A stretch of 64,000 nt of DNA from Candidatus Daviesbacteria bacterium (GTDB lineage Bacteria; Patescibacteriota; Microgenomatia; Daviesbacterales; UBA10151). The notes beneath the pieces were generated by a model. It was not told the DNA's origin. It saw nothing but the letters and a program-made list of their open reading frames with translations, and ran no database searches. The stretch covers positions 9,082 to 73,081 of the forward strand of contig JACOXG010000004.1 of assembly GCA_016176405.1 (NCBI GenBank), in the 5' to 3' direction. The stretch's first letter is position 1. The number at the start of each line of letters is the position of its first letter. A program made the position numbers and the translations under genes. Shown one piece after another: positions 3,476-49,586 of the stretch.

Positions 3476-3903
3476 TTCTCTGTTTTAATGCGTCTGGGCC
3501 ATAGGGTCGAATTTCTACTATACATACTTAAGCATCTCTTAGCCCAAATAAATATGCATATTCAGAGTTTAGGCCGTCAGATAGGAATAAATTAAAGAAA
3601 TTATCCAGTCTGTTTAAGATACTAAGCGGATCACAAATATTAGATTGATATATCAATCTAAGGAAGATCTAGATTTTTAGTTTGATTTTGTTCAATTTTT
3701 AATTTTTCATTAGCGGCATTAACAGCATCTTTGGCTCTGTTTTCTATATTTTTAGGATTTGAAGTTGAGGAAGAGTTAAAGGGTGAAAGAGTAGAGTTGG
3801 AAAAAACCAAAAGAAGGATAATTATTAGAGTTGTCACAAGTATAGCAAGTAAACCCATTGACTTTATATTACTATATTTAAATTTCGTATAATATAAGGA
3901 GAG

Positions 3904-6001: not shown

Positions 6002-7515
6002 ATGGTTGAAGTTCTGCCCATTAGAATTTTAAGAGAAGAAGATGGACCTATTTTTGGAAAAGAGGGTGTGGCTCTGGGGAAACTTGACAGAGCCGGTATA
6101 CCGGTAGCATCAGGATTGGTGATAACTGCTCCCCATCTTAAGCTGAGAGTTATTTTAGAGCATCATGATTTTGGATCCAAAGAAGTTTTTGAGCAGTCCC
6201 TAACCTTAGTTAAAAAAGAAATAGAAAAAATTCCCATTCCTGAAGTTTTAGAGCGGGAAGTTGGTCAACACACTCACTTTTGGCTGGCAGATTCTCAAAT
6301 TAAATCAGTTAAAAAACTTTGGTTAAGTTTACTGTTTATTTGGATAGAAGAAATTAAAAATAGACTCTGGCAGGACGGATTTTACCAGGGGATCACGGAT
6401 GGATTGGAATCACAAACGGTGATTTTTGTTAAAAAAATAGAGGGATGGATTGGAATCACAAACGGTGATTTTTGTTAAAAAAATAGAGGCCTGGGGAAAT
6501 GCCTATTTTGATCCCATTCAAGATGAGGTGGTAGTTCATATAAAGCAGGATAAACTTCATCCAAATGATTTGGAAAAGTTGCAAGAAATGGTCAGGCTGG
6601 CCAATAAGAAACTATTTATTCCGCACCAATATGATTGGATTTTAGATAAAGGATTAAAGATCGTTGGAATAAAACCGTTCACACCACCCTTTACTTCACA
6701 TCTATCTGATTTGGTAATTCCTGGCATGTCTACTTATCCCATACAAATAACCCCACTTCATGGGAACGGCATGGGTAAAGAGGCAAAAAGAAGTGTGGTT
6801 AAGGTTTTTTTGGATTTATCAGATGGACTAATCATTGAAAGGGAGGCTGATGGAGTCTATATTGCCGCGGAGAAAATTTTTGATTTAAACAAACCCCGAG
6901 ATTCTTTCGAAGATTTGGTTTTCAGAGTAGTTGAGGCGGCTGTAACTTTTCCCAATAGTCAGATACTTTTTAAATTGGCAGATATGTCAGAAGGAATGGG
7001 AAAGGTAAGAGGTACCTTAAGACTGTTGCATCAAAAAAGTTTATTGGAGCCGCTGATTTGTCAGAGGAGTAGGGGAACTCGTAAAAATCAAACAAGAGTT
7101 ATCTATTAAGAAATTAAAACGCCAAGCCTCTTTACAGTTTTGGTTGGAAATAGCTGTGCCGGAAAATATTATTAATTTGGAGGATTATTTAATGGTGGGA
7201 ATAGATGGAGTAGTTTTAAATTTGGATGAGTTGATTGCTCATTTTAACGGTTTTGACCAAACGCAAGAAGACTTGGTATTTTACAAAAATGAGGTTTCCG
7301 GATTGCTTAAATTTTTAGAAGATAGCATAAAACTGCTTAATAAATCCAAAATTCCTTTTATAGCCTATGGATCTTTAAGCCAATACCAAAAAGTTTTGGA
7401 ATTTTTGGTGGAAAAAGGAGTATATGGAGTGGTGGTGGAAAGATATGAAGTCCCTTCAGCCAAAGATTTGTTGTACCAGACAGAAAAAAGGATGATTTTA
7501 AGAAAATCCTCCTAA
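6002..7515 (+). pseudogene. PEP-utilizing enzyme-like gene (PEP synthase/PPDK-type N-terminal PEP/pyruvate-binding domain + C-terminal TIM-barrel-like domain) broken into three ORFs (6002-6478, 6450-7109, 7144-7515)
   Basis: N-terminal GKEGVALGKL...GIPVASGLVIT resembles the ATP-grasp nucleotide-binding region of PEP synthase; first break coincides with a 46-bp tandem duplication (not a multiple of 3); second frame change near 7050-7060. Confidence 0.45.
6398..6489. repeat. Perfect 46-bp tandem duplication (gatggattggaatcacaaacggtgatttttgttaaaaaaatagagg x2) inside the PEP-utilizing-like gene
   Basis: Two identical adjacent copies read directly; creates the frame break between ORFs 6002-6478 and 6450-7109. 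Confidence 0.9.
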
Positions 7516-8173: not shown

Positions 8174-8800
8174 CTATTGAAATCGCCTTATTACCCCTGT
8201 ACATTTGCCTTGAATTTTTAAAGATTCCGGATCATCTACATAGATTGGGTTCATGGTAGCATTGGCTGGTTCTAACCTAATCCTATTTGGCTCACGGAAA
8301 AATCTTTTTAAGGTGGCCAGACCATTGTCCAAAAGGGCCACCACAATATCTCCGTCATTGGCAATATTTTGCTCCTCAATGATGACAAAGTCTCCATCTA
8401 AAATTCCATCCTCAATCATGGAATCTCCTTTAACTTGTAAAACATATGATCTTTTTTTACCAGAAACCATGGAGGGTGAAACCTTGACTGTGGCATCAGG
8501 ATCTGTGTAGGTCATAATAGGCTGGCCCGCTGCTATAAATCCAAGAATGGGGAGTTCTACGCCTTGTAGAGCTGAGGAGATTTTTTGATCCAATACCTCA
8601 ATACCTCTGACAGCTCCTTCAAATCTTTTGATCACCCCTTTGGCAGATAATGCCTGTAAATGTTCATGAACTGTAGCTAAAGAAGATACTCCAATTGCCT
8701 CAGCGATCTCGCCCAAAGTAGGGGAATAACCATATTTATCAATATATTGTTTAATAAAATCTAAAATCTGTTTTTGCCGGCGGTATAAGGTGATAGGCAT
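8174..8800 (-). CDS. lexA: LexA repressor (SOS regulator; S24 peptidase)
   Basis: N-terminal winged-helix (LTxRQKQILDFI..GYSPTLGEIA), Ala-Gly cleavage-site region, S24 motifs VKGDSM and KR. Confidence 0.9.
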   Translation of the reverse strand: MPITLYRRQKQILDFIKQYIDKYGYSPTLGEIAEAIGVSSLATVHEHLQALSAKGVIKRFEGAVRGIEVLDQKISSALQGVELPILGFIAAGQPIMTYTDPDATVKVSPSMVSGKKRSYVLQVKGDSMIEDGILDGDFVIIEEQNIANDGDIVVALLDNGLATLKRFFREPNRIRLEPANATMNPIYVDDPESLKIQGKCTGVIRRFQ

Positions 8801-10850: not shown

Positions 10851-12569
10851 ATGCAGCTAGATCCTGCCTCAGCAGTTACCAAAACTACCACCAGTTTAGA
10901 TGATAATAAACTGACTCAGCTTCTGGTTGGGAGCGAGATTATATCCCAACAAGATATAGAGCACGCCAAAGAACTATCTTCTCAAAAAAAGATTTCACTA
11001 TATGAAGCCATCTTAGAAAAAGATCTGATCACAGATGAAAATTTAGGCAAAATTATTGCAGATAACTTTGGGGTACCACCTGTGACTTTAACCAAAGTCT
11101 CCATCCCGGTCAATCTGTTACATATCTTGCCAGAGAGTGTGGCTGAAAAGCAGCAAACATTAATTTTTGGTGCTGATAAAAATATTTTAAAAGTGGCCAC
11201 CACCAATCCTCAAAATAAAGACTTCTTACAGATGTTAGGAAAAAAGGCTGGCCAAAAAATACAAATCTACTATGCCACCCCCAGAGAGATTAAAAAAAGT
11301 CTCAACGTCTATAAGAAAGAGATGCTTTTGACCTTTGATGAACTGCTCAAGGAACAAATTAATAAAGCTGATAAATCCGGAGTAAAAAATGATGCTCCGA
11401 TTGCCAAAATTGTCGATACTTTAATTGAATATGCTTACAGATCAGCTGCCTCAGATATTCATATTGAACCTGAGGAAGAGAAGGTCTTGGTTAGATTTAG
11501 AATTGATGGAGTTTTACATGATGAACTGGATCTGCCACCCACCTTGCATGAACAGATTGTCACCAGAATTAAGGTTTTATCAAAACTTAGAATTGATGAA
11601 CATTTGAGCGCCCAGGATGGTAAGTTACAAGCTAAGCTGGAAGATGAAGATTTAGATGTCAGGGTGTCAATTGTGCCGGTGGTAGGTGGGGAAAAGGTGG
11701 TGTTGAGACTTTTGACTTCTCATTACAGACAATTTGGTTTAACAGATTTGGGCATGAACCCCAAAGATTTGGAAAAGGTCAAAAAGGCTTTTGAAAAACC
11801 TTTTGGTATGATTTTATCATCAGGTCCGACCGGTTCGGGTAAAACTACCACCATTTATGCCATTTTAAAAATTTTAAATACCAGAGATAAAAATATTGCC
11901 ACGGTAGAGGATCCGGTAGAGTATGAAATAGAGGGCATTAATCAAATACAGGTTAATCCCAAAACTAATTTAACTTTTGCCGAAGGTTTAAGATCAATCT
12001 TAAGACAAGATCCAGATATTATATATGTAGGAGAGATCAGGGATGAGGAAACTGCCGGAATTGCCATCAATTCTGCCATGACCGGACATTTGGTTTTATC
12101 AACTTTGCACACTAATAATGCAGCCACCGGTCTGCCAAGGTTAATTGATATGAAAATTGAACCATTTTTGGTCTCATCCACCGTTAATGCCATGATTGGT
12201 CAAAGGCTGGTCAGAAAGATTTGTGACAGGTGTAAATATTCTTACACGCAGAAATTGGAAGAATTAGTTAAGCAATACTCCAAAGAGATGATTGAGAAAC
12301 ATCTGGGTACTGAGGCTGAAACCAGACTCTATAAAGGCAAGGGCTGTAATGTTTGTCATATGAGTGGTTATTTAGGCAGAATAGGCATTTTTGAAGTATT
12401 GGAGTTGTCCCCCACCATTAAAGATATGATTCTTAAAAAAACAGATGCTGATACGATTAATGCACAAGCCATTAAAGATGGTATGACCACCATGTATGAG
12501 GATGGTTTGGATAAAGTTCAATTGGGATTAACCACTATCGAGGAGGTGCTTAGAGCAACCAGCGAATGA
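10851..12569 (+). CDS. pilB: Type IV pilus assembly / type II secretion ATPase (PilB/GspE family)
   Basis: Walker A GPTGSGKTTT, Asp/His boxes, tetracysteine CDRC...CNVC motif, N-terminal GSPII_E N-domain. Confidence 0.9.
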   Translation: MQLDPASAVTKTTTSLDDNKLTQLLVGSEIISQQDIEHAKELSSQKKISLYEAILEKDLITDENLGKIIADNFGVPPVTLTKVSIPVNLLHILPESVAEKQQTLIFGADKNILKVATTNPQNKDFLQMLGKKAGQKIQIYYATPREIKKSLNVYKKEMLLTFDELLKEQINKADKSGVKNDAPIAKIVDTLIEYAYRSAASDIHIEPEEEKVLVRFRIDGVLHDELDLPPTLHEQIVTRIKVLSKLRIDEHLSAQDGKLQAKLEDEDLDVRVSIVPVVGGEKVVLRLLTSHYRQFGLTDLGMNPKDLEKVKKAFEKPFGMILSSGPTGSGKTTTIYAILKILNTRDKNIATVEDPVEYEIEGINQIQVNPKTNLTFAEGLRSILRQDPDIIYVGEIRDEETAGIAINSAMTGHLVLSTLHTNNAATGLPRLIDMKIEPFLVSSTVNAMIGQRLVRKICDRCKYSYTQKLEELVKQYSKEMIEKHLGTEAETRLYKGKGCNVCHMSGYLGRIGIFEVLELSPTIKDMILKKTDADTINAQAIKDGMTTMYEDGLDKVQLGLTTIEEVLRATSE

Positions 12570-13642
12570 AACTGCCTGTCCTAAATTCAATATTTTTTAG
12601 GATCACCCTTTTAGACAAAGTGCTTTTTTCTAAACATTTAGCCATTATGTTAAAAAGCGGCATCCCGATTGCTGAAGCAATTATTTCTTTGAGAGATCAA
12701 ACCACCAATATGGCTTTTAAAGAAGTTTTAGCTGCAGTTACTGCTGATGTGGAAAATGGACAAAGCTTGGAAAAATCTTTATCAAAACATCCAAAAGTAT
12801 TTAATACTTTATATCTAAGTTTAGTCTCAACAGGTGAGAAAAGTGGAAATTTAGAAGAAAATTTAGATTATTTGGCTCAACAGCTTCGAAAAAGTTATGA
12901 TTTTGACAAAAAAATTCAGGGAGCCACTCTTTACCCAAAAATTGTACTTGCTGCCACAGCCATTATGGGAGGAACATTATCTTTGTTTGTTTTACCTCAA
13001 CTGGTGACTCTGTTTGCCTCATTAGATGTCAAACTGCCTCTGTCTACTAAAATTTTATTATTTTTTGCCAATACCATGAAAAATTTTGGTGTTTTTATAG
13101 CCTTAGGCTTAGTTATCGCCGCTATCATAGCTTCTCTTGTTTTAAAAACTCCCATCATTAAACCTCTCTGGCATAGATTTTTGATTAGATTGCCAATTTT
13201 TGGCAAGCTGATTCAAAATATAGAACTGGCCAATATCTGTCGAAACTTGGGGATTATGTTAAAGAGTGGTTTAACGGTGACCCAATCTCTTGATGCCCAA
13301 TTTGAAGCCACCCAAAATTTAGTCTTTAAAGATTATTTAGACCATTTAAGAAAAGCAGTAGAAAAAGGGAAAAAAATATCTGATGAGATGTCAGTCACTA
13401 AGTTTAAGTTTATCCCTGCCATAGTTCCCAAGATGGTGGGAGTAGGAGAACAAACAGGTAAGCTAGAAGATGTCTTGATATATTTGGGAGATTTTTTTGA
13501 GGAAGAAGCTGATGATGCCACTAAAAATTTATCAACCACCATCGAGCCAATTCTTTTGCTGATAGTCGGGACAGTGGTGGGATTTGTGGCTTTGGCTATA
13601 GTTACTCCCATCTATGACCTGACATCTGGTATCAAAAAATGA
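12566..13642 (+). CDS. pilC: Type IV pilus platform protein (PilC/GspF family)
   Basis: GspF-type repeated domains and 3 TM segments; translationally coupled to pilB (overlapping stop/start). Confidence 0.85.
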   Translation: MKLPVLNSIFFRITLLDKVLFSKHLAIMLKSGIPIAEAIISLRDQTTNMAFKEVLAAVTADVENGQSLEKSLSKHPKVFNTLYLSLVSTGEKSGNLEENLDYLAQQLRKSYDFDKKIQGATLYPKIVLAATAIMGGTLSLFVLPQLVTLFASLDVKLPLSTKILLFFANTMKNFGVFIALGLVIAAIIASLVLKTPIIKPLWHRFLIRLPIFGKLIQNIELANICRNLGIMLKSGLTVTQSLDAQFEATQNLVFKDYLDHLRKAVEKGKKISDEMSVTKFKFIPAIVPKMVGVGEQTGKLEDVLIYLGDFFEEEADDATKNLSTTIEPILLLIVGTVVGFVALAIVTPIYDLTSGIKK

Positions 13643-14115
13643 GCAAGCTCTTTTCTTCGAAAATGAACAAGTTCTTTTCTTCGAAAATGAGAGGGATCAC
13701 CCTGATTGAATTGCTCATTGTGATTGCTTTAGTTTTAATTGTTTCTGCCATGGGGCCAATCTTTTATTCCAGATTTTTATTACAAAATGCAGTGGAAGAT
13801 ACTGCCAATCAAATATCTGGCAGTTTAAGAAAAGCCCAGACCTATGCCATGATGGGAAAACAGGGTAGTGCTTGGTCCCTAAATTATTCTTCAAACACCC
13901 TAACTTTATATAAAGGTACTAACTTTGCCTTAAGAGATAGCTCATTTGATGAGAAGTTTGATATCAATCCTAATGTAACTATTTCCGGGACAGATATTTC
14001 ATTTGCCAAAGTCACTGGCTTACCAACTCCATCCTCTGCTACTATTACCATCACTTCTGGCAATAATTCTAAAACTTTAACTGTTAACAATCAAGGAGTG
14101 GTCTCAAGACAATGA
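13639..14115 (+). CDS. Prepilin-type N-terminal cleavage/methylation domain protein (pseudopilin/minor pilin)
   Basis: Class III signal MRG|ITLIELLIVIALVLIVSA; three in-frame Met starts created by a 24-bp tandem duplication; true start probably 13687. Confidence 0.7.
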   Translation: MSKLFSSKMNKFFSSKMRGITLIELLIVIALVLIVSAMGPIFYSRFLLQNAVEDTANQISGSLRKAQTYAMMGKQGSAWSLNYSSNTLTLYKGTNFALRDSSFDEKFDINPNVTISGTDISFAKVTGLPTPSSATITITSGNNSKTLTVNNQGVVSRQ

Positions 14116-16028
14116 AAAAGGCAACTGCCCTGAGCGATCCTGAGCGAGCGAAGCGAGTCGAAGGAGAGTCGAAGGGTTTTTCAATCTTAGAAGTCATTTT
14201 AGCCGCAGCCTTGTTTGTGACTTTTTCAGTAGGGGCAATAACCGTGGTGGTGTCCGGTTATAATGCCAATAGGTTAGGAGCAGAATTTAGTGTGGCTAAC
14301 CAGTTTGCCTCAGAAGGCATGGAGGCAGTTAAATCAATCAAAAATCAATCCTACTGTGACTTGGCAGCAGTTAGCTCATCAACCAGGGGACTTCTAAGAA
14401 CTGGAGGTGTCTGGGCTTTTGATGCTGACGGGACTGATGACCGTCTGACTCACAACAGTAGCGATGATTTTATCAGAACTGTTAAGGTGGAAAGAGTTCG
14501 AAGAAATGCTGCCGGGGATATTGTCATCTCAGGTGGAACAGTAGATTCTTATAGCAAAAAAATTACCTCAACGGTCAATTGGAATTTTAACACAGCCAGG
14601 CCTGAATCAATCAGCTTAGTCTCTTATTTGTCTGATTGGAGAAGACCGATCCCTGGGGGTAGTAACGGAATAATTATTTATACTGGTGAAGGCTCAAACA
14701 CACCAACCTATAGGATTTACGATGTTTGCTCTAATTCCTTTGGGCCAGAGTTTTCAACAGTGGCTGGGGGTCTTGGAAAAAATTTTGTGACTAGAACCTC
14801 GCCCACCAAAGGAGAAGTCATTGTAGGATATGGTGATAATTCAAACCCCCAGATACTTAGGGTGATGTGTTTTGATGGAGCAACTTGGAGTATTGAATGG
14901 TCAGCCACAGTTGGAGGAGATGGTAGCGGAACTAACGCTACTACCAGGCGATTTGATATTGCTTATGAAACCAATTCTGGTGATGTGCTGGTGGTATATT
15001 CCACTAATTCAGGCACAAATGAAATAGGTTATAAAACCAAGCCTGGTTCAGCAGACTGTGGTGCTAGTAATTGGGTTTCCTATCCTAACATTGATTCACC
15101 AGGAACCTCAGGTACTGTTACCTGGGTCACCATGGCTTGGGATCGAAGATCTACTTCCAATTTGATTGCAGCTGTTTGGGCTGATACTGCTAATGATTTG
15201 CAAGGAGCTGTTTGGGATGGGGATACCAACAGTTGGGTTCAAAGGACTACAGCCATGGATACATCACTGGCTCTTGGTTCAATTCAAGACGTAGAGTTTG
15301 AGTCAGTTTCTGGTGATATTATGGTAGTTTGGGCAAATGTGGCTGGTAATAATGGGACCAATGGAGCGCGTTACATGACTTGCGTAGGAGGAACAGCTAA
15401 CTGTACCTGGGATGCATCTGCCCAAACACCGCCCACTTTTTTGGATGCTGCGCAGAACTTAGATATAGCTGCCAACCCGCTAGATAATCAGCTTCTTTTT
15501 GCCTCTATTGGCTTCGATCCTAATGATTCAGGTGGACAGGATTTACAAGTTGGTCGCTGGGATGGTAGTGCCTGGGCCAATGTGGCCAATGTTGATACCT
15601 CTAGCAAGCCTCCCTTAGGAGCCGTGAGTAAAATGGTGGCTAATGGATGGTTAATTGCTGGTTCCACAGTCAGAGGAATAGTGGTTTATGTAGATAACGT
15701 AACTACTGGAGTAATCAGCTATCTAGTGATGACACCCTGTGGCCCCCCATATCCTTGTTCCCCGTCTTGGAGTGGCCTGCAGACTGCCAGCCCTGCACCC
15801 ACCATGGGAGGTAATCAGCTTTGGAATGATATTCAAATGGATCCTATTAATCAAGAATCCTTAATCTTAACTGCCTCCAATTTTACAAATGACTTGTTTG
15901 CTAAAAGATTGGTGATGACTGCTGGCCCCACTCTTACCTGGACTGATGCTAATAATGGCTCAGTTCTAGAGTTGGATTTGGGACAAAACAGCAGGAGTCC
16001 TTTCAGTTTTGCCTATTGGAGATACTGA
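14112..16028 (+). CDS. Large (638 aa) prepilin-type N-terminal domain protein (pilus-associated minor pilin/adhesin candidate)
   Basis: KGFSILEVILAAALFVTF prepilin cleavage/methylation motif after an unusually long 22-aa leader; Gly/Thr/Ser/Asn-rich beta-rich remainder. Confidence 0.6.
   Translation: MKKATALSDPERAKRVEGESKGFSILEVILAAALFVTFSVGAITVVVSGYNANRLGAEFSVANQFASEGMEAVKSIKNQSYCDLAAVSSSTRGLLRTGGVWAFDADGTDDRLTHNSSDDFIRTVKVERVRRNAAGDIVISGGTVDSYSKKITSTVNWNFNTARPESISLVSYLSDWRRPIPGGSNGIIIYTGEGSNTPTYRIYDVCSNSFGPEFSTVAGGLGKNFVTRTSPTKGEVIVGYGDNSNPQILRVMCFDGATWSIEWSATVGGDGSGTNATTRRFDIAYETNSGDVLVVYSTNSGTNEIGYKTKPGSADCGASNWVSYPNIDSPGTSGTVTWVTMAWDRRSTSNLIAAVWADTANDLQGAVWDGDTNSWVQRTTAMDTSLALGSIQDVEFESVSGDIMVVWANVAGNNGTNGARYMTCVGGTANCTWDASAQTPPTFLDAAQNLDIAANPLDNQLLFASIGFDPNDSGGQDLQVGRWDGSAWANVANVDTSSKPPLGAVSKMVANGWLIAGSTVRGIVVYVDNVTTGVISYLVMTPCGPPYPCSPSWSGLQTASPAPTMGGNQLWNDIQMDPINQESLILTASNFTNDLFAKRLVMTAGPTLTWTDANNGSVLELDLGQNSRSPFSFAYWRY
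14128..14176. repeat. GC-rich repeat insert (ccctgagcgatcctgagcgagcgaagcgagtcgaaggagagtcgaaggg) in the leader-coding region of the large pilin gene
   Basis: Local GC far above flanks; internal direct repeats (cctgagcga x2; gagtcgaagg x2); encodes LSDPERAKRVEGESKG. Confidence 0.6.
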
Positions 16029-16528
16029 TGATGGGAAAGCAAAAGGGTTTTACTTTCATTGAAATTATTCTATATGTCGTGATTGTTTCCATTATGATGG
16101 CTGCTTTAATTCCTTTTGCCTGGGATGTGATTGGAGGAGCTTCTAAAAGCGGTGCTCAGCAAGAGGTTTTTTCTCAAGCCAGGTTTGTTTCTGAAAGAAT
16201 TAAATATGAGATTAGGAATGCTAGTGGGATTACCTCGGTTGGAGCCAGTAGTATTAGTTTAACTAATTTTTCTCCAGATACTACCACTGTAATAGATCTT
16301 TCTGGAGGAAAGATTAGAATTAATAAAAACGGAGCAGGTGCAGTTAATTTAAATTCTGATGATACAAATGTTACTAATTTAACATTTACCAACTATACCT
16401 CGGGGGACAATAAAACCAAGCATATCCAATTTAGCTTTACCATAGATGATAATTATGGTAGTTCAAGGCAAGAATATGATGTTCCAGTCCAGACTATCCA
16501 GGGCAGTGCAGAAGTAAGGAGTAATTAA
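16016..16528 (+). CDS. Prepilin-type pseudopilin
   Basis: KGFTFIEIILYVVIVSIMMA class III signal motif. Confidence 0.7.
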   Translation: MEILMMGKQKGFTFIEIILYVVIVSIMMAALIPFAWDVIGGASKSGAQQEVFSQARFVSERIKYEIRNASGITSVGASSISLTNFSPDTTTVIDLSGGKIRINKNGAGAVNLNSDDTNVTNLTFTNYTSGDNKTKHIQFSFTIDDNYGSSRQEYDVPVQTIQGSAEVRSN

Positions 16529-16909
16529 ATGAAAGAGAAAGGATTCGTAGCCATTTCTGTAGTTTTAATTTTAATAGTAGTAGTTTTATCAATTGGTGCC
16601 ACCGTTACTTATTTATCTATTGGAGAAGGCCAATCAGGTTTAATTCTATACCAAGGTGAGGATAATCTTAGCTTTGTAGAAGGTTGTGCTGAGGATGTGA
16701 TGGTTAAAGTTAGATCCAATAGTGCTTTTAATGATACCTCAATCAGTCGGCCTGAGGGAACTTGTTCAATTACTTATAACTTGGGAGGGCCAACTGATTG
16801 GGATATTACTGTTTCCTCATCAACCACCACCAATGTCCAAAGAAAAATTCAAGTAATCTTTGTCAGAAATCCGACAGGAATAACTTTAACTAGTTGGAGG
16901 GAGATTTAA
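16529..16909 (+). CDS. Pilin-like protein (PilX-like minor pilin candidate)
   Basis: N-terminal KGFVAISVVLILIVVV hydrophobic prepilin-like segment; operonic with other pilins. Confidence 0.5.
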   Translation: MKEKGFVAISVVLILIVVVLSIGATVTYLSIGEGQSGLILYQGEDNLSFVEGCAEDVMVKVRSNSAFNDTSISRPEGTCSITYNLGGPTDWDITVSSSTTTNVQRKIQVIFVRNPTGITLTSWREI

Positions 16910-20656: not shown

Positions 20657-21297
20657 GCTAAGAATTCCTCTATTTGTGCTTGAGAGATACCAAGAAGCCT
20701 CAGATCTTTTAGGTCTTTTGGTCTGGGAGGTGCAATGTGTAGAGGTGTACTATGTAAATCAACTGATTTACTAAATGTTAATGCTAGAGCATCAAGAATA
20801 TAGACTGGTCTTCCATTAAATTGTACTGGGGTTGAATGACTAAAAAGAATCCTAATATTAGGTTCACTACCAGGAATTCTACGTGATTCGAGCCAGCGTT
20901 TTGCGCTTTTGGAAGGGGTTCCTGCAAATTTTTTCTCTGTCTCACTATCTTCGCTTCGAAGTACTAAATCTACATCCTCTGGAATTTGTCTTGTAGGTAT
21001 TAATAAATGTACCGCTACCCCACCTTCTATAAGGTATTGTAATTGTCCATTTTCAACTTGTGGAAAAATAGAAATTAAAAGATCTAGAATTTTATCCCAG
21101 GAGGGTTGAGGATTTTCCCTATATAATGCTTCCAATGAAGGATGCCTTGGATAGACTATTATTGGTGGGAGTTCTTTCATAAGTTGAATTATACAATAAT
21201 TCATGCATTTTCTTCGGGTCTTCTTAGTGGTAAAATGGAATTTTGTCCCAACGTCATTCCTGCGAATGCTCGCTTCGCGAAGCGAGCAGGAATCCAA
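20641..21297 (-). CDS. Hypothetical protein, possible nucleotidyltransferase-fold (GG...DVDLV); annotated N-terminus is probably repeat-derived
   Basis: IEGGVAVHLL...EDVDLVL motif; first 30 codons are the reverse-strand translation of palindromic element B, so the real start is probably MNYCII (about 21204). Confidence 0.4.
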   Translation of the reverse strand: MDSCSLREASIRRNDVGTKFHFTTKKTRRKCMNYCIIQLMKELPPIIVYPRHPSLEALYRENPQPSWDKILDLLISIFPQVENGQLQYLIEGGVAVHLLIPTRQIPEDVDLVLRSEDSETEKKFAGTPSKSAKRWLESRRIPGSEPNIRILFSHSTPVQFNGRPVYILDALALTFSKSVDLHSTPLHIAPPRPKDLKDLRLLGISQAQIEEFLAEFTI

Positions 21298-21345
21298 TTA
21301 ATAAAATCACGTTCAGAATTGGATCCCCGCCTACGCGGGGATGAC
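21253..21345. repeat. Palindromic element family B (two hairpins: cattcctgc..gcaggaatg and atccccgc-cta-gcggggat) with an extra nested palindrome (gctcgcttcgcgaagcgagc), 18 bp upstream of the uvrB start
   Basis: Near-identical copy in dinB (63114-63188) and a shorter inverted copy in tkt (46931-46987); translated on the plus strand it gives VIPAN...AGIQ...ELDPRLRGDD, a motif widespread in other bacteria. Confidence 0.8.
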
Positions 21346-21362
21346 GAAAGGAAGAATATTTT

Positions 21363-23375
21363 ATGGCAAAGTTTATGATAGTTTCTGACTTTAAACCTAC
21401 TGGGGATCAGCCACAGGCTATTGAGAAGCTGGTGAGTGGATTAAATAATAATGAGAAACATCAAGTTTTGCTTGGTGTGACAGGTTCTGGAAAAACTTTT
21501 ACCATGGCCAATGTGATCCAAAAAGTCCAAAGGCCTACCTTAGTTATTTCTCATAACAAAACTCTTGCAGGGCAGCTGGCTCAAGAATTCAGGTCCCTTT
21601 TTCCCAACAATGCCGTGGAATATTTCGTTTCATACTATGATTATTACCAGCCCGAGGCTTATGTGCCTCAATCAGATACTTATATAGAAAAAGAGACAGA
21701 AATTAATGAGGAAATTGAAAAATTAAGGCTTTCCACTACTACTTCTTTGATGACCCGAAAAGATGTGATTGTGGTGGCCTCAGTATCCTGTATCTATAAC
21801 TTAGGTTCTCCTGTTGAATATGGCGGAGCTATTTTGGAGCTTAAAGAAGGGGTAAGATCTGGATTCCAATCCATTTTGAAGATGTTACAGAAAATGTATT
21901 ACTTGCGGAATGATTTAGATTTTAGAAGATCTACTTATAGAGTTAGAGGTGATACATTGGATATTTATCCTTCATACGCAGATTCTGCTGTTAGAGTAGA
22001 GTTTTTGGGGGACAAGATTGAAAGAGTATCTCATCTTGATCCTTTAACTGGAACAGTTACACCTACTTCCCAAACTTTGACTATTTTTCCTGCCAAACAC
22101 TACATTACTTCTGAGGCCAGATTTGAAGGAGCTTTAAAACAGATTCAGGAAGATTTGGTGGCCAGATTAAAACAGCTTAGGAAACAGGGAAAACTGTTGG
22201 AAGCTCAAAGATTAGAGCAAAGAACTTATTATGATCTGGAAATGATCAAAGAGTTTGGATATTGTAATGGAATTGAGAATTATTCCAGGTATTTTGATGG
22301 AAGAGCTCCAGGTGAGTCACCTTTTACTTTAATGGAATATTTTCCTAAGGATTTTTTACTAATTATTGATGAATCACACATTACTCTTCCTCAAATTAGG
22401 GGTATGTATAATGGTGACAGATCCAGAAAAGAAACCTTGGTTGAGTTTGGATTTAGGCTTCCCTCAGCTTTAGATAATAGACCGCTAAAATACGAGGAAT
22501 TTCAAAGGAAAATAAATCAAGCTATCTATGTTTCAGCCACTCCTGATGAGTATGAATTGAGTTTGGCTGGGGCTCACCTCCGAGGTGAGGGCAAGGTGAC
22601 ATCTGGCACACACCTCGGAGGTGTGGTGGAACAACTGGTCAGGCCAACAGGGATCGTAGATCCACAAATTTCTGTTAGAGGAACCAAAGGACAAATTGAT
22701 GATGTGATCAAAGAGGTAGAAAAACGCGTGGAACGTGGAGAGCGAGTCTTGATCACTACACTTACCAAAAGAATGGCAGAGGATCTGACTGACTATTTGA
22801 AAGAGAAAGGAATTAAGGTGAACTATTTACATTCAGATATTGAGACATTAAAAAGGTCTGATATTTTACAATCTTTAAGATTAGGGGAATTTGATGTGAT
22901 TGTGGGAATTAATCTTTTAAGAGAAGGTTTAGATTTACCAGAAGTAACTTTAGTCATAATCTTAGATGCTGATAAAGAAGGATTTTTAAGATCAAAAACC
23001 TCACTTATACAAACCATGGGCAGAGCTGCTAGAAATATTGGAGGAGAGGTAATTATGTATGCAGATAATGTGACAAAGTCTATGAAAGCTGCTATAGAGG
23101 AGGTGGATAGAAGAAGACAATACCAGGAGGAATATAATAAAAAACATAAAATAAAACCTAGAAGTATTGAGAAAGCTTTAAGGGAAAGGTTAATTGAGCA
23201 AGTTGAAGAGTTAGAAGAGCAATTGGGTAAAAAAGAGTTAAGAGTGGAGGATATTCCACCAAAAGAAAGAGATAAAATGTTAAGAAATTTAGAAACTCAA
23301 ATGAAACAAGCAGCAGAACTTTTGGATTTTGAGGAAGCAGCAAGACTTAGGGATCAAATTAAGGAGCTAAGTTAG
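21363..23375 (+). CDS. uvrB: Excinuclease ABC subunit B (UvrB), carrying an in-frame 18-aa insertion from a palindromic repeat
   Basis: Walker A GVTGSGKTFT, helicase motifs, beta-hairpin region, C-terminal UvrBC coiled-coil domain (EEAARLRDQIKEL); insertion [18 protein letters not shown] between YELSLAG and VEQLVRPTG. Confidence 0.95.
   Translation: MAKFMIVSDFKPTGDQPQAIEKLVSGLNNNEKHQVLLGVTGSGKTFTMANVIQKVQRPTLVISHNKTLAGQLAQEFRSLFPNNAVEYFVSYYDYYQPEAYVPQSDTYIEKETEINEEIEKLRLSTTTSLMTRKDVIVVASVSCIYNLGSPVEYGGAILELKEGVRSGFQSILKMLQKMYYLRNDLDFRRSTYRVRGDTLDIYPSYADSAVRVEFLGDKIERVSHLDPLTGTVTPTSQTLTIFPAKHYITSEARFEGALKQIQEDLVARLKQLRKQGKLLEAQRLEQRTYYDLEMIKEFGYCNGIENYSRYFDGRAPGESPFTLMEYFPKDFLLIIDESHITLPQIRGMYNGDRSRKETLVEFGFRLPSALDNRPLKYEEFQRKINQAIYVSATPDEYELSLAGAHLRGEGKVTSGTHLGGVVEQLVRPTGIVDPQISVRGTKGQIDDVIKEVEKRVERGERVLITTLTKRMAEDLTDYLKEKGIKVNYLHSDIETLKRSDILQSLRLGEFDVIVGINLLREGLDLPEVTLVIILDADKEGFLRSKTSLIQTMGRAARNIGGEVIMYADNVTKSMKAAIEEVDRRRQYQEEYNKKHKIKPRSIEKALRERLIEQVEELEEQLGKKELRVEDIPPKERDKMLRNLETQMKQAAELLDFEEAARLRDQIKELS
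22575..22623. repeat. REPIN-like element family A (cacctcCgaggtg - 23 bp - cacctcGgaggtg) inserted in-frame in uvrB
   Basis: Two 13-bp palindromes in inverted orientation; same arms at 25176-25224 (uvrA), 63728-63777 (dinB) and related palindromes flanking the HuH transposase gene at 48785-48809/49524-49543. Confidence 0.85.
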
Positions 23376-23825: not shown

Positions 23826-25532
23826 TTGACAAAATTATTATCAAAGGTGCTCGTGAGCACAATCTTGGCTTTTGATACCCTATATGCTGAGGGGCAGAGA
23901 AGATATGTTGAATCCCTTTCTGCTTATGCCAGGCAGTTTTTGGGGGTCATGGATAAGCCTGATGTAGATTTAATTGAAGGATTATCTCCTGCTATTTCTA
24001 TTGATCAAAAAGGAGTTTCACACAATCCCAGATCTACTGTTGGAACAACTACTGAAATTTATGATTACTTAAGGCTACTTTTTGCCAGAATTGGCCATCC
24101 TCATTGTCCTATTTGTGGCAGGGAAATTAGTAGGATGAGTGTGGAACAGATTGTGGAAATAGTCATCAGTAGTCAGTCATCAGCTATCAGCAAGAAGGGG
24201 AGAAGAATCATGGTTTTGGCTCCTGTTGTTAAAGATAGAAAAGGGGAGTACTCCTCGCTTTTTGAAGATTTAAGAAAGAAAGGTTTTTCTAAAGCCAGAG
24301 TTGATGGGCAGATTAGGGATTTGAGTGAGGATTTTGTATTGATTAAAACTAATAAGCACACTATTGATGTCGTAGTTGATCGGCTCGTGTTAGAGTCTAG
24401 AGTCAAGAATCTAGAATCTAGTGAGACACAATATAGACTCTCGACTCTAGCGACTAGACTCTCACAAAGTATTGAAACAGCAGTTAAATTAGGTGAAGGA
24501 TCTGTAATAGTTTCTGATGTTTTAGATGCTTCTTTAGAATTTCCCCAGAGCCCTAAAAAAATGGAAGATCACCTATACTCTGAAAGATTTGCCTGTCCTG
24601 TTGACAATATAGCTCTATCTGAGGTTGAGCCCAGATTATTTTCTTTTAATTCCCCCCACGGAGCTTGTCCAACATGCTCCGGATTAGGTTCTCTTTTAGA
24701 GATTGATCCGGAAATGGTCTTAAACCCAATTTTATCCATTGCTGAGGGTGGAATTTTACCCTGGCAAAAATTAGCCACTCATGAAACCTGGTTTTCCAGG
24801 CTAATTGAGGCAGTGGGTAAGGAATATGGCTTTGACTTAAACACCAGATTAGGACAGCTTTCAGATGAGGCTAAAAAAGTGCTTCTACATGGTTCAGGAG
24901 ACGATGAATTCAGAGTGGAAGGTAGAAATAGACAAGGCAGATGGACCTCATTTTATTCTGAATTTCAAGGCTTAGTTCCATATTTAAAGCAAAGATACCA
25001 AGAATCTGAATCAGATTATGTCAGAGCAGAAATTGAAAAATATATGTATAAAGAAACATGTCCCAAATGTAAAGGGGCTAGGCTTAAAGATGAGGCTTTA
25101 TCAATCACCATTGATGGTTTAAATATTGCTGAGGTGACCACCCAATCTATCAACGAAGCTTTAGATTGGATTGCTCACCTCCGAGGTGAGGGCAAGGTGA
25201 TGTCTGGATCACACCTCGGAGGTGTACTCTCGGAACGAGAATGGCAAATTGCCACCTCAATTGTCAAAGAAATTAAAGCTAGATCACAGTTTTTGATTGA
25301 TGTAGGTTTAGATTATTTAACTTTAGATAGACCCTCTATGACTTTGGCAGGAGGGGAGTCACAAAGGATCAGATTGGCCTCTCAAATTGGTTCAGGGTTA
25401 TCTGGAGTTTTATATGTTTTAGATGAACCCTCAATTGGTTTACATCAAAGGGATAATGCCAGGTTGATTGATACTTTAAAGAGACTGCGGGATTTGGGAC
25501 GGAGGGAAAATTGTCGATACTGGAACCCCTGA
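23826..25532 (+). CDS. uvrA: Excinuclease ABC subunit A (UvrA), N-terminal/central segment; gene appears disrupted
   Basis: [26 protein letters not shown], zinc-finger Cys pairs, ABC signature [12 protein letters not shown]; a separate upstream start [16 protein letters not shown] (23819) is in another frame and the NBD-I Walker A segment is absent; contains three repeat-derived in-frame insertions. Confidence 0.85.
24391..24463. repeat. Palindromic element family C (tagagtctagagtc...agactctcgactctagcgactagactct) inserted in-frame in uvrA
   Basis: Related copy at 52335-52401 (intergenic in the MacAB-like operon); encodes [24 protein letters not shown]. Confidence 0.7.
25176..25224. repeat. 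REPIN-like element family A inserted in-frame in uvrA (encodes [18 protein letters not shown])
   Basis: Same 13-bp inverted palindromic arms as the uvrB copy; spacer differs at a few positions. Confidence 0.85.
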
Positions 25533-44618: not shown

Positions 44619-46070
44619 CTAAATTCTACAAAATTCCATGGATGGTTCTAACCATTTTCTTCCATCAGCCTCAATTAACTGATCAGCTTCTTTTGGTCCC
44701 CAAGAACCAACTTTATAAATTATGGGTTTACCCCGAACTTTAGAAAGGGGATCAGTAAAGGCCCACTGGGCTTCAACTTCTTGGGCATCATTAAAAAAGG
44801 TCTGATCTCCTCTGATGGTATCAACCAGTAACCTTTCATATGGATCAGGTACAAAATGTGTATGAGGATCAATTCTATAGCAATACTGCATATACTCTGG
44901 TTGTAGTTTTACCCCATGGCCAGGCAGTTTAGTTAAGATTTTTAAAACTACTCCCTCGTTTGGCTGAATTCTGTAAACCAAAATATTGGGTTCATCCCCG
45001 CTTTTTAGGTTTTTGAATAACCTGTTGACCGGATTTTTGAAGACAAGGGAAATTTCCGTGACATACTGTTTTAGTTTTTTTCCAGCTCTGATATAAATGG
45101 GAACATCTTTGAATCTGTCATTTTTGATAAAAGTTTTTAGGGCATAATAGGTATCGGTGGTAGAGTTGGAATCAACATTTGGCTCTTTGTTATAACCTTC
45201 ATATTGACCAAATACCACTTTATTAGGCATTGGGACTAAACTTTTTAGAATTTTAATCCTTTCTTTGGTAACAGCCTCATTAGTAAAGCGCGATGGAGCA
45301 TCCATGGTGGCAAAGGCCAGCATCTGTAGCTGATGATTTTGTCCCACATCTTTCAATGATCCAACCTGGTCATAATACCCACCCCTTCTGCCAATGCCAA
45401 AATCCTCAGTGGCTGTGATTTGAATATGGTCAACAAAATCTTTATTAACTAAAGGCTCAAAAATATCATTGGCAAATCTAAAAGTTAAAATGTTTTGCAA
45501 GGTCTCTTTACCTAAATAATGATCTAATCGATAAATTTGATCCTCTGTAAAATATTTCAGTAAGAGTTGATTTAAGGCTTTGGCCGAAGGTAAATCTGAG
45601 CCAATTGGTTTTTCAATCATCAGCCTGACCCAACCGCTGTTTTGCAAATTTAATTTATACTTTTGTAGATTTTCAAAAATATAATGATATAAATCTGGAT
45701 ATGTAGCCAGATAGTAGATTCTATTGTCATGTTTTAAATAATTCTGTAACTTTTTATATAATGCCGGATCTTGAATTTCACCACTTAAGTATTTAAGTCT
45801 TTTGCAAAGTTTACTGAAGATATCTTCTTTGATTTCATGTTGATGATGAACATTTTCTAAATGTAGAACCTTATGTACGTATTCTTTCAGAGTTTGATCA
45901 GACATTTCCCTTCTGGCGATGCCTAAAATAGTCATATCGGCAGGTAGAAGATTTTTTTCTTCCATATCATAGAGAGCGGGGATAAGTTTGATCTGAGCCA
46001 AATTGCTGGTGATACCAAAAATTACCAAGGCGAAAGATTCCATGGGAATAGAATATATCATATGATACAA
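44619..46070 (-). CDS. zwf: Glucose-6-phosphate 1-dehydrogenase
   Basis: NAD(P) fold GxxGDLA-like N-terminus; G6PD signature RLDHYLGKE. Confidence 0.9.
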   Translation of the reverse strand: MYHMIYSIPMESFALVIFGITSNLAQIKLIPALYDMEEKNLLPADMTILGIARREMSDQTLKEYVHKVLHLENVHHQHEIKEDIFSKLCKRLKYLSGEIQDPALYKKLQNYLKHDNRIYYLATYPDLYHYIFENLQKYKLNLQNSGWVRLMIEKPIGSDLPSAKALNQLLLKYFTEDQIYRLDHYLGKETLQNILTFRFANDIFEPLVNKDFVDHIQITATEDFGIGRRGGYYDQVGSLKDVGQNHQLQMLAFATMDAPSRFTNEAVTKERIKILKSLVPMPNKVVFGQYEGYNKEPNVDSNSTTDTYYALKTFIKNDRFKDVPIYIRAGKKLKQYVTEISLVFKNPVNRLFKNLKSGDEPNILVYRIQPNEGVVLKILTKLPGHGVKLQPEYMQYCYRIDPHTHFVPDPYERLLVDTIRGDQTFFNDAQEVEAQWAFTDPLSKVRGKPIIYKVGSWGPKEADQLIEADGRKWLEPSMEFCRI

Positions 46071-47567
46071 TTTCGGACAATGAATAATCTAAGAGAGCTA
46101 GCTAAGCTAGTTAGGTACTTTATCTTAATTTCCACCACTGAGGCAGGGTCTGGGCATCCTACCTCATCTCTATCCGCCACCGACTTGATGGTGGCTCTTT
46201 TTTTTGGAGGATTTCTTCATTTTGATTTGAAAAATATAGATAATGCCAATAATGATCGTTTAATTTTCTCTAAAGGTCACGCCTCCCCTCTTTTCTACTC
46301 AATTTATGGGGCAGCCGGTGCAGTTTCTGAAAAGGAGCTTCTGACTCTGAGAAAGTTTGACAGTCCATTAGAGGGGCATCCTTCCACGGAGTTTCCCTTT
46401 ACCGAGGTTCCCACAGGATCTTTGGGTCAAGGTTTATCTGTTGGAGTTGGTATGGCTATTAATGCTAAATATCTGGATAAATTGGGATATAAAACTTTTG
46501 TACTATTGGGTGATTCTGAGATGGCAGAAGGATCTGTTTGGGAGGCAATTCAGCTGGCAGCATTTTACAAATTGGACAATTTGGTGGCAATTTTGGATGT
46601 GAACAGATTGGGACAAAGAGGGCAGACTATGTATGGACATGATGTTAAAGCATATCAGCAAAGAGTTTCCAGTTTTAGTTGGAAAACTATTGTAATTGAT
46701 GGACATAATTTGGCTCAGATTAAAAGGGCGTATCAGCGAGCCTTAAAGACTAAAAATGTCCCTACTATGATTATTGCTAAAACTATTAAAGGTAAAGGAT
46801 TTTCAATTTGGGAGGATAAAGATGGTTGGCATGGGAAGGCACTTCCTAAGGAGGATTTGGAAAGGGCTTTGAAGGAATTGGGTTATATAAATAAGAAACT
46901 TCGTGGAAAACTCAGCTTACCCACAAAGTCATCCCCGCTTTCGCGGGGATCCATAAATAATTGGATTCCTGCCTCCGCAGGAATGACAAACTATTCCCAA
47001 GGTGACATGGTGGCAACAAGAAAGGCCTATGGTAATGCTTTAGTAAGGCTTGCTCCCAAATATCCTGATATGGTGGTATTAGATGCCGAGGTGAATAACT
47101 CTACTTATTCAGAATTTTTTGCCCAAAAATTTCCCCAAAAATATTTTGAGATGTTTATTGCTGAACAAAATATGGTGGGAGTGGCTTTGGGACTTTCAAG
47201 GCGGGGCAAAATGCCTTTTATCTCCACCTTCGCCGCCTTTTTAACTAGAGCTTTCGATCAAATCAGAATGGCTCAGTATGCCAAAACTAATATTAAGTTT
47301 TGTGGTTCTCATGCAGGAGTTTCCATAGGGGAAGATGGGCCCTCTCAGATGGGATTAGAAGACATTGCCATGTTTAGGACAATTATGGGTAGTGTGGTGT
47401 TGTATCCTTCTGATGCTGTCTCTTGCGAAAAATTGGTGGAAGAGGCTGCAAAGCATTATGGCATGGTTTATATTAGAACCACCAGAAAAGATACACCTGT
47501 TATTTATTCTAATAATGAGCAATTCAAAGTGATCATGACCAGGTTACTATTTTGGGAGCAGGGATAA
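46062..47567 (+). CDS. tkt: Transketolase (N-terminal TPP-binding + pyrimidine-binding domains), with an in-frame repeat insertion and a 3' frameshift
   Basis: TPP motifs GSGHPTSSLS, GDSEMAEGSVWEA; 19-aa insertion SSPLSRGSINNWIPASAGM from palindromic element B; frame changes around 47527-47545 into ORF 47552-47896. Confidence 0.85.
   Translation: MIQFRTMNNLRELAKLVRYFILISTTEAGSGHPTSSLSATDLMVALFFGGFLHFDLKNIDNANNDRLIFSKGHASPLFYSIYGAAGAVSEKELLTLRKFDSPLEGHPSTEFPFTEVPTGSLGQGLSVGVGMAINAKYLDKLGYKTFVLLGDSEMAEGSVWEAIQLAAFYKLDNLVAILDVNRLGQRGQTMYGHDVKAYQQRVSSFSWKTIVIDGHNLAQIKRAYQRALKTKNVPTMIIAKTIKGKGFSIWEDKDGWHGKALPKEDLERALKELGYINKKLRGKLSLPTKSSPLSRGSINNWIPASAGMTNYSQGDMVATRKAYGNALVRLAPKYPDMVVLDAEVNNSTYSEFFAQKFPQKYFEMFIAEQNMVGVALGLSRRGKMPFISTFAAFLTRAFDQIRMAQYAKTNIKFCGSHAGVSIGEDGPSQMGLEDIAMFRTIMGSVVLYPSDAVSCEKLVEEAAKHYGMVYIRTTRKDTPVIYSNNEQFKVIMTRLLFWEQG
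46931..46987. repeat. Palindromic element family B (short form, inverted orientation) inserted in-frame in tkt
   Basis: atccccgc-tttc-gcggggat hairpin plus cattcctgc-ctcc-gcaggaatg hairpin; 57 bp = 19 codons. Confidence 0.8.
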
Positions 47568-48756: not shown

Positions 48757-48784
48757 GGATTTTTAAATAAGTATTAGTTGCTAT

Positions 48785-48809
48785 CATTCCTACCTCGGAG
48801 GTAGGAATG
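48785..48809. repeat. REP-like perfect palindrome (cattcctacctc-g-gaggtaggaatg) 3' of tal and flanking the HuH transposase gene
   Basis: 25-bp palindrome whose core acctcNgaggt matches family A arms; followed by a T-run, so it may also terminate tal. Confidence 0.8.
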
Positions 48810-48840
48810 AATGTGCACGTAGGGTTTTATCCAGTATTTT

Positions 48841-49518
48841 TTATTCAAGAAGCTTATGTTTAATTAATTCAAGCTTTCTAGCATAATCTACTTGATCTAG
48901 TACAAATTGTTCATATCTTTTGGAATTTTTAAATAATGAGATAACAACTTCCTTATTGCAAATTTTATCTTCTTGTAATTCAAGATAGGATACATATGAT
49001 GACCAAGGATAGTCTCTTAAGTTTTTAACTAAATAGGAAGCAATTGGGTTTAGGTGTATATATCGTGATAAATGTATCAATTGTTCATCTGATTCCACTC
49101 TGACAGCCTTAAATTGTCCTTGGAAGAGTGGCCCAACGCGCTCATGACGTGTATTAAAGTACTTAGTATAGCTGTTAGAAACCTTATTAATGAATTCAGA
49201 GATTCCCTTTTCTTCGAGCTGCCGCAACATAAAGTGATAATGGTTAGGCATTAGGCAATAGCAAATTATTTCCACAATTCTTTTGTTCTTCTCATACTCA
49301 AAATCCTTAAAACGATTTAACTGAGAAAATTGAGGTTTGGGTCCCTGGAATTGGTAATAGTAGATCGTCTCTAAGAATCGATTGTAATCTCTTCGATCAT
49401 CAAATACCGGCATCTTTGCCACTCCACGATTAAAAACATGGTAGACTTGGCCAGTGGCCAATGGAATTATTCGATAGGGCATAAATTCTACTAAACCACA
49501 TATTACCCAAGGTGTCAA
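48841..49518 (-). mobile_element. IS200/IS605-type HuH tyrosine transposase, probable REP-associated tyrosine transposase (RAYT)
   Basis: HuH motif LMPNHYHFM, catalytic Tyr region LSRYIHLNPIASYLV (compare E. coli RAYT YIYINPVKHGWV); flanked on both sides by REP-like palindromes of the same family dispersed in the window. Confidence 0.75.
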
Positions 49519-49523
49519 TACAT

Positions 49524-49543
49524 TTCCACCTCGGAGGTAGGAG
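49524..49543. repeat. REP-like palindrome (ttccacctc-g-gaggtaggag) immediately 5' of the HuH transposase gene
   Basis: Matches the left-flank palindrome and family A arms. Confidence 0.8.
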
Positions 49544-49586
49544 TAAGTTTGGAGTATTGTATACTTAATAAATCTAACTAGAGCTT

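Follow-up and report, generated by a model that had tools for sequence, protein, structure and literature searches.

Doublets of repetitive extragenic palindromic sequences (REPs) are mobilised by REP-associated tyrosine transposases (RAYTs), as in the REPIN/RAYT system. The typical location of REPs is the boundary between unidirectional genes; intragenic copies are documented, and N-terminal ones are considered harmless, with the warning that most of them may be misannotations (Di Nocera et al. 2013, PMC3733652). Rickettsia palindromic elements (RPEs; Ogata et al. 2000, as cited in PMC3733652) are in-frame palindromes that leave the open reading frame (ORF) of the host gene intact and its product probably functional. 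Class III signal peptides have hydrophilic leaders that stay in the cytoplasm, have a natural length of 6 to 26-30 residues, at which they are processed, and they tolerate changes in the leader, only the terminal Gly being critical (PMC4471445). Here, we examined a stretch of 64,000 nt (hereafter, the window) from a Candidatus Daviesbacteria bacterium of the candidate phyla radiation (CPR, Patescibacteria), in which a 49-nt, GC-rich palindromic element lies in the leader-coding 5′ end of a gene for a large modular pilin. We favour the reading, with a probability of about 0.7, that this element is an intragenic REP/RPE-like passenger, selfish or neutral, which is tolerated because the prepilin peptidase removes the leader. 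Intragenic REPs and RPEs are already known; what is new is the family member, the host lineage and the location in a CPR prepilin leader.

The 638-residue product of the pilin ORF (100% identical to NCBI HYS94_00725) starts with MKKATALSDPERAKRVEGESKGFSILEV. Its leader has 22 residues, MKKATALSDPERAKRVEGESKG|FSILEV, or, with more of the mature N-terminus after the cut site, MKKATALSDPERAKRVEGESKG|FSILEVILAAALF. A sequence-only reading of the window had proposed a canonical KG|FSILEV processing site after a leader of about 22 residues, and this was borne out, Gly22 (position -1) and Glu27 (+5) being invariant columns across 46 aligned orthologues. It had also placed a 49-bp stretch of high GC content with direct repeats in this leader, and we find the same: the block is 63% GC, compared with a mean of 37.5% (standard deviation 8.6%) for 40-nt segments of the window, is one of about 23 comparable GC islands there, and holds CCTGAGCGA at 14129 and 14139 and GAGTCGAAGG at 14155 and 14166. 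A check that it had proposed, for further units of the latter type, gave none in the window, and neither direct-repeat unit is found exactly anywhere else in the 64 kb.

We then compared the locus with its orthologues. The large pilin has 170 homologues, mostly from CPR, and aligns with its orthologues over 97-100%, with an intact ORF. The closest orthologue (P0002, at locus L121; 68% identity) has the same gene order and the same ATGA-overlapped start, with a leader of 8 residues, MKILNEKG|ISILEV, and DNA that is 42 nt shorter, and the alignment gap in L121 coincides with the GC-rich block of the window. Short-leader orthologues lack the block, so that the earlier view of it as an inserted repeat holds, the net gain in the leader being 14 hydrophilic codons. 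A chimeric assembly was rejected, since the insert is bordered on both sides by in-frame homologous pilin sequence. In 106 orthologues, the -1 Gly lies at positions 2 to 134 with a median of about 10, most leaders having 2-12 residues and about 17% reaching 20 or more, part of this spread being due to extension by gene callers. Hence, of the claim that the leader is unusually long, the first half stands, in that 22 residues are long for the family, but they are not extreme.

The core of the element, CCTGAGCGAGCGAAGCGAGTCGAAGG, laid out as CCTGAGCGA-GCGAAGC-GAGTCGAAGG, matches a palindromic repeat that is dispersed over at least 120 loci. Among contigs that represent one genome per species, no fewer than 120 loci contain the exact 19-mer GAGCGAAGCGAGTCGAAGG, compared with about 4 expected by chance in 596 Gb, according to our own uniform-composition estimate. 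Among the matches listed, the hosts include Acidobacteriota, Planctomycetota, Lachnospiraceae and Oscillospiraceae (Firmicutes), Coriobacteriia, Bacteroidota, Gemmatimonadota, Eremiobacterota and Myxococcota and, within CPR, Roizman-, Zambryski- and Uhrbacteria, Paceibacterota and Saccharibacteria. The 7 bases CCTGAGC, 5′ of the query and outside it, are about 95% conserved in the copies, so that the copies are homologous. The block of the window shares an exact 26-27-nt match with this family, and a profile of 132 copies from other genomes gave a single match in the window, at 14136-14165 (nhmmer, E = 5.8e-11). These results, together with the recurrence of the same nested architecture in other genomes (see below), refute a de novo origin by local tandem duplication or slippage in an existing leader, unrelated to dispersed elements, an idea to which two perfect tandem-like direct repeats within 49 nt and a true 24-nt tandem duplication in the neighbouring leader had lent some appeal; we rejected it and give it practically no credence.

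The family unit is an imperfect palindrome, (AT)CCT-GAG-CGA-[GC-GAA-GC]-GAG-TCG-A-AGG(AT), in which the closing pair covaries between two subtypes (T-A in 67, C-G in 41 and T-G in 17 of the 132 copies, with 7 unpaired), and diverged copies differ chiefly in the central loop. Palindromic pairing is thus kept by compensatory changes, as is general for REP-like sequences. At positions -12 to -10, the majority of copies (79/132 at each) have G, T and C, mostly within a (T/C)GTC tag that precedes an AT-starting stem; the window copy has no tag and is preceded by GCAACTG. Copies occur as singles, as inverted pairs (many) and in clusters, and there are several per genome in Sediminibacterium, in an Oscillospiraceae metagenome-assembled genome (MAG) and in a Coriobacteriaceae MAG among the matches listed. 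Copies also lie in frame within other genes, one in a PBP2-like gene of Roizmanbacteria (L027, about 7220-7290, SVILSERSESKDPL) and one in a recG-like gene (L123, 291-355, AILSERSESKGSRG).

As in the CGTC/TGTC superfamily, we are dealing with a short, GC-rich, palindromic dispersed repeat, many copies of which carry the (T/C)GTC tag and the AT-starting stem, which forms singles, inverted pairs and clusters, which in some cases lies inside genes, including DNA-repair genes, and for which no dedicated transposase was seen. The unit of about 30 nt, however, has an interrupted stem of 5+3+2 bp (CCCT/AGGG, CGA/TCG and GC/GC around a GAA loop), whereas the described families have stems of 8-9 bp and loops of 4-5 nt; it also lacks the CCA tail, takes a nested two-tier form and, in the window copy, is untagged. 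Since its stem and loop geometry, tail and tag are unlike those of the four described CGTC families (CGTC-1 to -4), we call it REP-like and do not count it as a member. A further difference is the core of 26-33 nt, which is nearly identical over many phyla, from Acidobacteriota to CPR, and this is unusual for REPs. With RPEs, the element shares the in-frame palindrome in a host ORF that stays intact and probably functional, and several insertions of this sort occur in different genes of one genome, as they do in the window; it differs from them in its CPR host, presumably in its sequence, and in its position, since it lies in a peptide removed by proteolysis and RPEs lie in surface loops of mature proteins. 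RPE-1 is also much longer than the 49-nt leader element.

Searches of Rfam, at the gathering threshold for the window and by E-value for 13900-14400 and four hairpin-pair loci, returned only tRNAs or chance-level matches. Exact matches in 2.9 million viral contigs numbered only 2, each in a high-GC fragment, and tell us nothing about a vector. A literature search by sequence, with the core and its sub-strings, yielded no relevant paper, and the supplements of PMC3733652 do not contain the family motif. One copy of the family, in a Paceibacterota contig (L069, 2945-3700), lies just 3′ of a LAGLIDADG-type ORF in highly structured-looking GC-rich sequence, possibly that of an rRNA or a group I intron.

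The direct repeats noted earlier are present, but they are not repeats of the slippage type: the element is a nested palindrome in which the left arm and the right arm are each doubled (Table 1). The same nested architecture occurs in one genome locus (L104) and in two metagenome contigs (L123 and L124). In the alignment of the four nested copies, the two-tier structure pairs 98.5% of cells, compared with 26-47% for slid partners, and compensatory change is seen in 4 pairs, which belong to the outer helix and to the closing pair of the inner one; for four sequences, this evidence is supportive, not conclusive. Of its three sense frames, the nested element has stops in two, and the pilin gene uses the only open one, ALSDPERAKRVEGESK, as does L124, where the identical peptide, LSDPERAKRVEGESK, stands at the 5′ end of a TolC-like outer-membrane efflux ORF, before its signal peptide (3832-3896). 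The arrangement of the two arms also bears on whether the direct repeats, with periods of 10 and 11 nt, could act as a slipped-strand or deletion switch, in which a frameshift through loss of one unit would switch the pilin off, and loss of both (21 nt) would restore the frame. The arithmetic suits such a switch (10 + 11 = 21 nt, frame-neutral jointly and frameshifting singly), and, with its lectin-like propeller, the product of the host gene resembles a surface adhesin; yet each unit has two copies only, and the doubled arms are an inherited architecture seen in other genomes, which makes a switch very improbable.

Table 1. Features of the pilin locus and of other palindromic repeats, in positions of the window.
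Feature	Position	Strand	Remarks
Large modular pilin gene, 638 residues	14112..16028	+	ORF call; class III signal peptide, alpha1 helix, small beta domain, C-terminal beta-propeller
Inserted REP-like palindromic element, nested two-tier form, 49 nt	14128..14176	+	Family profile; absent from L121; architecture common to L104, L123 and L124
Family-typical left flank CTG	14125-14127	+	May belong to the element
Outer left arm CCCTGAGCGA	14128..14137	+	Pairs with 14166-14176
Inner left arm TCCTGAGCGA	14138..14147	+	Pairs with 14155-14165
Central mini-hairpin or loop GCGAAGC	14148..14154	+	Variable in diverged family copies (GCGCAGC, GCAAAGC, GCGGAGC)
Inner right arm GAGTCGAAGGA	14155..14165	+	
Outer right arm GAGTCGAAGGG	14166..14176	+	Last bases read Ser-Lys-Gly and provide, or overlap with, the codons for Lys (-2) and Gly (-1)
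Leader-coding segment, Met1-Gly22	14112..14177	+	Gly22 invariant in orthologues; residues disordered in the AlphaFold2 model
ATGA start/stop overlap	14112..14115	+	With the upstream minor-pilin ORF (13639..14115); translational coupling
GGAG, putative Shine-Dalgarno-like sequence	14095..14098	+	13 nt 5′ of the ATG; aligns with GGGG/GGGGG in L121 and L127
Predicted prepilin cleavage site and mature start	14175..14192	+	Gly22 / Phe23-Ser-Ile-Leu-Glu27
pilB (T2SSE)	10851-12569		Type IV pilus-like cluster
pilC (T2SSF)	12566-13642		Type IV pilus-like cluster
Minor pilin	13639-14115		Type IV pilus-like cluster
Two further pilin-like ORFs	16016-16528; 16529-16909		3′ of the large pilin
Double palindrome in uvrB ORF 21363-23375	22557-22652		In frame; 16 residues more than in solved UvrB structures
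Double palindrome in uvrA-like ORF 23826-25532	25161-25241		In frame
Double palindrome in dinB-like ORF 62991-63998+	63714-63794		In frame; reads FHLRGEPSISTSAHLGGV
RAYT-like Y1 (IS200-type) transposase, ORF 48841-49518	48784-49545	-	HYH and YIHLNP motifs; single ACCTCGGAGGT palindromes on both sides
Tail-to-tail pair of CGTC-type REPs in transketolase ORF 46062-47567	46925-46990		In frame; interdomain linker; reads SSPLSRGSINNWIPASAGMT
Pair of CGTC-type REPs in dinB-like ORF	~63090-63190		In frame; reads SVIPANAGIQLNESRSELDPRLRGDD
Further CGTC-type REP sites	21250-21350; 63150-63190		

The start codon of the pilin gene overlaps the stop codon of the minor-pilin gene, and it is the sole in-frame ATG, GTG or TTG before Gly22, with none between 14115 and Gly22. 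Since no later start follows this overlapped one, the GC-rich block is translated, and the downstream in-frame start that would have spoken against the earlier reading is absent. The same ATGA or GTGA overlap is present in the orthologous loci L121, L127 and L130. Given the warning about misannotated N-terminal REPs (PMC3733652) and the alternative starts near the Gly in orthologues L127 and L130, we examined whether the annotated start could be wrong and the element lie outside the gene, in the 5′ untranslated region. The only near-cognate codon, the CTG that forms codon 7, precedes most of the element, and ATG 14112 is the conserved, ATGA-coupled start. A misannotated start is thus contradicted by the sequence, with no downstream start before Gly22, and was rejected as having hardly any chance of being right.

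The leader MKKATALSDPERAKRVEGESKG is hydrophilic, with 6 basic and 4 acidic residues (net +2) and a terminal Gly, and is followed by the hydrophobic stretch FSILEVILAAALFVTFSVGAITVVV, broken by Glu at +5, as expected of a class III signal peptide. Its 22 residues fall inside the documented range of 6-26/30 (PMC4471445). The PF07963 (N_methyl) hidden Markov model (HMM) scored the protein at 12.9 bits with the insert and 14.5 without it (cut-off 21.2) and TIGR02532 at 12.0 (cut-off 16.3), and several large-pilin orthologues carry a precomputed PF07963 match. The suggestion that the insert could alter PilD processing or export was not supported: KG|F, Glu+5, the hydrophilic character and the net charge of +2 are kept, the HMM score hardly differs with and without the insert (12.9 and 14.5 bits), and the length is within the range of processed leaders.

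In its general build, the leader resembles the long class III leaders of type IVb pilins and Flp (PMC4471445), with about 20 hydrophilic residues that end in Gly before a hydrophobic helix with Glu5. Unlike there, the extra length is an inserted repeat, the family has mostly short leaders of 2-12 residues, and there is no homology to type IVb pilins; a long leader is not an ancestral trait of the large-pilin family. The lengthened leader might still be functional, in a type IVb-like manner, by altering the rate of the peptidase, the membrane insertion or the export of a very large pilin. Its length is within the type IVb range of 15-30, and the leader of the adjacent minor pilin is also expanded (19 residues, through a 24-nt tandem duplication, versus MRKNG in the orthologue). 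On the other hand, the peptide is dictated by the repeat and the same residues are encoded in an unrelated context (L124), the closest orthologues work with leaders of 3-12 residues, and only Gly-1 is known to be critical, so that we regard a functional leader as a poor prospect.

A different role could lie in the RNA, as is possible for classical REPs. A hairpin at the cistron junction would set the stability of the mRNA or the rate of translation of the large pilin relative to pilB, pilC and the minor pilin, and translation of the leader would be incidental. The element follows a coupled start by 13-65 nt, where two unidirectional genes meet, which is the typical REP location (PMC3733652), and the junction with the insert folds at -17.1 kcal/mol, versus -7.4 kcal/mol for the junction of the orthologue. 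However, this fold is no more stable than that of dinucleotide shuffles (z = 0.01), so that thermodynamics alone give no sign of a selected structure. Independent palindromes also lie at the same junction in other loci: an 82-nt, CGTC-tagged, head-to-head inverted pair in L127 (1513-1594), hairpins in L129 (860-990), including GACGGAGTACGTC, three hairpin units of about 60 nt in L130 (690-875), where the leader is open over 74 codons, and an AT-rich palindromic spacer of 110 nt in L122 (2892-3000). They are unrelated to the element of the window. Most orthologues, though, have nothing at this junction, there is no Rfam match, and translating ribosomes would melt the structure. Hence, we consider an RNA function unlikely.

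Returning to the passenger reading, we suggest that the Daviesbacteria lineage, once it had diverged from the closest sequenced orthologue, gained a widely dispersed REP-like palindrome in its nested form with doubled arms. This palindrome would have inserted directly behind the translationally coupled start of the large pilin gene, at a junction without intergenic space, and would have been kept in its only stop-free sense frame, with a net gain of 14 hydrophilic codons and with the Lys-Gly before Phe+1 preserved, now encoded by the element itself. The element would then be translated within the cytoplasmic leader, the prepilin peptidase would continue to cut after Gly22, and the mature pilin would be unchanged, so that the long leader would be a neutral by-product of a passenger in a permissive site. 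The element would persist because it keeps the frame and affects only the segment that the prepilin peptidase discards, and the mechanism is probably passive. The leader is the permissive part of this family, with 10 sequence-specific insertions of at least 8 residues in leaders versus 2 in the mature parts of about 600 residues in 98 orthologues, a count that is inflated by gene callers picking the longest ORF.

This inflation is one of several points that weigh against the passenger reading. There is one family copy only in the 64 kb, and neither a local source nor a mobilising enzyme was identified; no association of the family with a RAYT was found, a tblastn search of the RAYT-like protein of the window against 127 loci giving one weak match, and this transposase is flanked by a palindrome that differs from the leader element. 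The insertion relative to the orthologue is 42 nt and the element 49 nt, which leaves the exact ancestral site and the junctions uncertain. The N_methyl score of the pilin is below threshold (12.9 versus 21.2 bits), and a motif scan of the 64-kb window found no prepilin peptidase gene or GxGD-type motif, processing thus being assumed. Finally, the recurrent palindromes at the junction of the minor and large pilin genes could reflect selection for an RNA function and not mere tolerance.

The same palindromes may be looked at in another way, namely that, in type IV pilus operons of CPR, the 5′ end of the gene for the large modular pilin, which encodes the leader, is a recurrent safe harbour for selfish DNA, in that anything inserted between the coupled start codon and the -1 Gly would be cut from the protein by the prepilin peptidase. 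At least four unrelated palindromic families in this slot are compatible with the idea (window, L127/P0056, L129 and L130, the element of orthologue P0056 being deduced from its peptide only), as is a fusion in L128 (1463-1905, orthologue P0008), where a complete four-helix-bundle gene (PF05635, 23S rRNA intervening-sequence protein) lies between the minor and large pilin genes, with AT-rich inverted repeats on its flanks and an in-frame fusion to NKG|LSILEV that would give a leader of 133 residues. Similar AT-rich arms may have left remnants in P0071, P0092 and P0112, in the form of their ISNFKFQISN-type leaders. We put this generalisation forward tentatively, as possible though doubtful. If it is true, the prepilin peptidase would be a clean-up step analogous to the removal of inteins and introns, and the near-identical 26-33-nt core over many phyla would point to an ongoing horizontal spread of the element.

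The host gene belongs to a type IV pilus-like cluster (Table 1). In the AlphaFold2 model of the large pilin (pLDDT 83.6), residues 1-22 are unstructured (pLDDT about 46), and the alpha1 helix (25-79) and a small beta domain are followed by a large, multi-bladed beta-propeller (184-638). The best Foldseek matches of the propeller were the sialidase-like 4irt and seven-bladed PLL/PHL fucose-binding lectins, and the propeller resembles those of bacterial and fungal lectins and sialidases. From this likeness, the host gene would encode a modular pilin with a probable carbohydrate-binding head, which suggests that it is a glycan-binding adhesin displayed on the CPR pilus. A sequence search of the PDB with the host protein gave nothing useful, the fold being known from the model and Foldseek.

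The insert had been said to resemble other repeat insertions in the window. Such insertions exist, in uvrA, uvrB, dinB and transketolase genes, but they belong to palindrome families other than that of the leader element. ACCTCSGAGGT occurs 8 times in the 64 kb (0 expected), and the GC-rich double palindromes of the uvrA-like, uvrB and dinB-like genes consist of CACCTCCGAGGTG, 36 nt and CACCTCGGAGGTG and all encode one peptide or a close variant of it. As in the REPIN/RAYT system, the window holds a RAYT-like transposase flanked by palindromes, doublets of which lie in uvrA, uvrB and dinB; unlike what that system would predict for the leader element, the flanking palindrome is ACCTCSGAGGT. The RAYT-like ORF matches Pfam Y1_Tnp (E = 1.2e-8) and has its best match in REP-associated tyrosine transposase, with 62.3 bits for NCBIfam REP_Tyr_transpos, below the 80-bit cut-off. 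With its flanking palindromes, it forms a REPtron-like arrangement in a CPR genome and is the likely source of the uvrA, uvrB and dinB insertions, and together with the doublets it indicates a genome with an active-looking REP biology. Canonical CGTC-type REPs (ATCCCCGC-N4-GCGGGGAT-CCA) occur three times in the window, and a form CGTCATTCCTGC…GCAGGAATCCA is also present. Besides the uvrA, uvrB and dinB genes that bear these repeats, the window encodes a LexA homologue (LexA_DNA_bind and Peptidase_S24, 8174-8800).

REP/RPE-like in-frame insertions, which have been described mainly in Proteobacteria and Rickettsia, thus also decorate the genes of an ultrasmall CPR bacterium, and no paper linking REPs to CPR was found in the library searched. 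The pilin locus would be an example of a cleaved signal sequence that absorbs mobile DNA at no cost to the mature protein. It also indicates that odd or long N-termini in the annotation of CPR pilins can be repeat insertions and not new types of signal, which bears on the prediction of pilins and on how CPR genes for host attachment are interpreted.

The neighbouring minor pilin (GspH/ComGD-like) has a leader of 19 residues (13639-13695), MSKLFSSKMNKFFSSKMRG|ITLIE, which arose when 24 nt, with the start codon among them, were duplicated in tandem (ATGAGCAAGCTCTTTTCTTCGAAA / ATGAACAAGTTCTTTTCTTCGAAA). In L121, the leader of its orthologue reads MRKNG|FTFIE, and two internal ATGs in the window copy are possible alternative starts.

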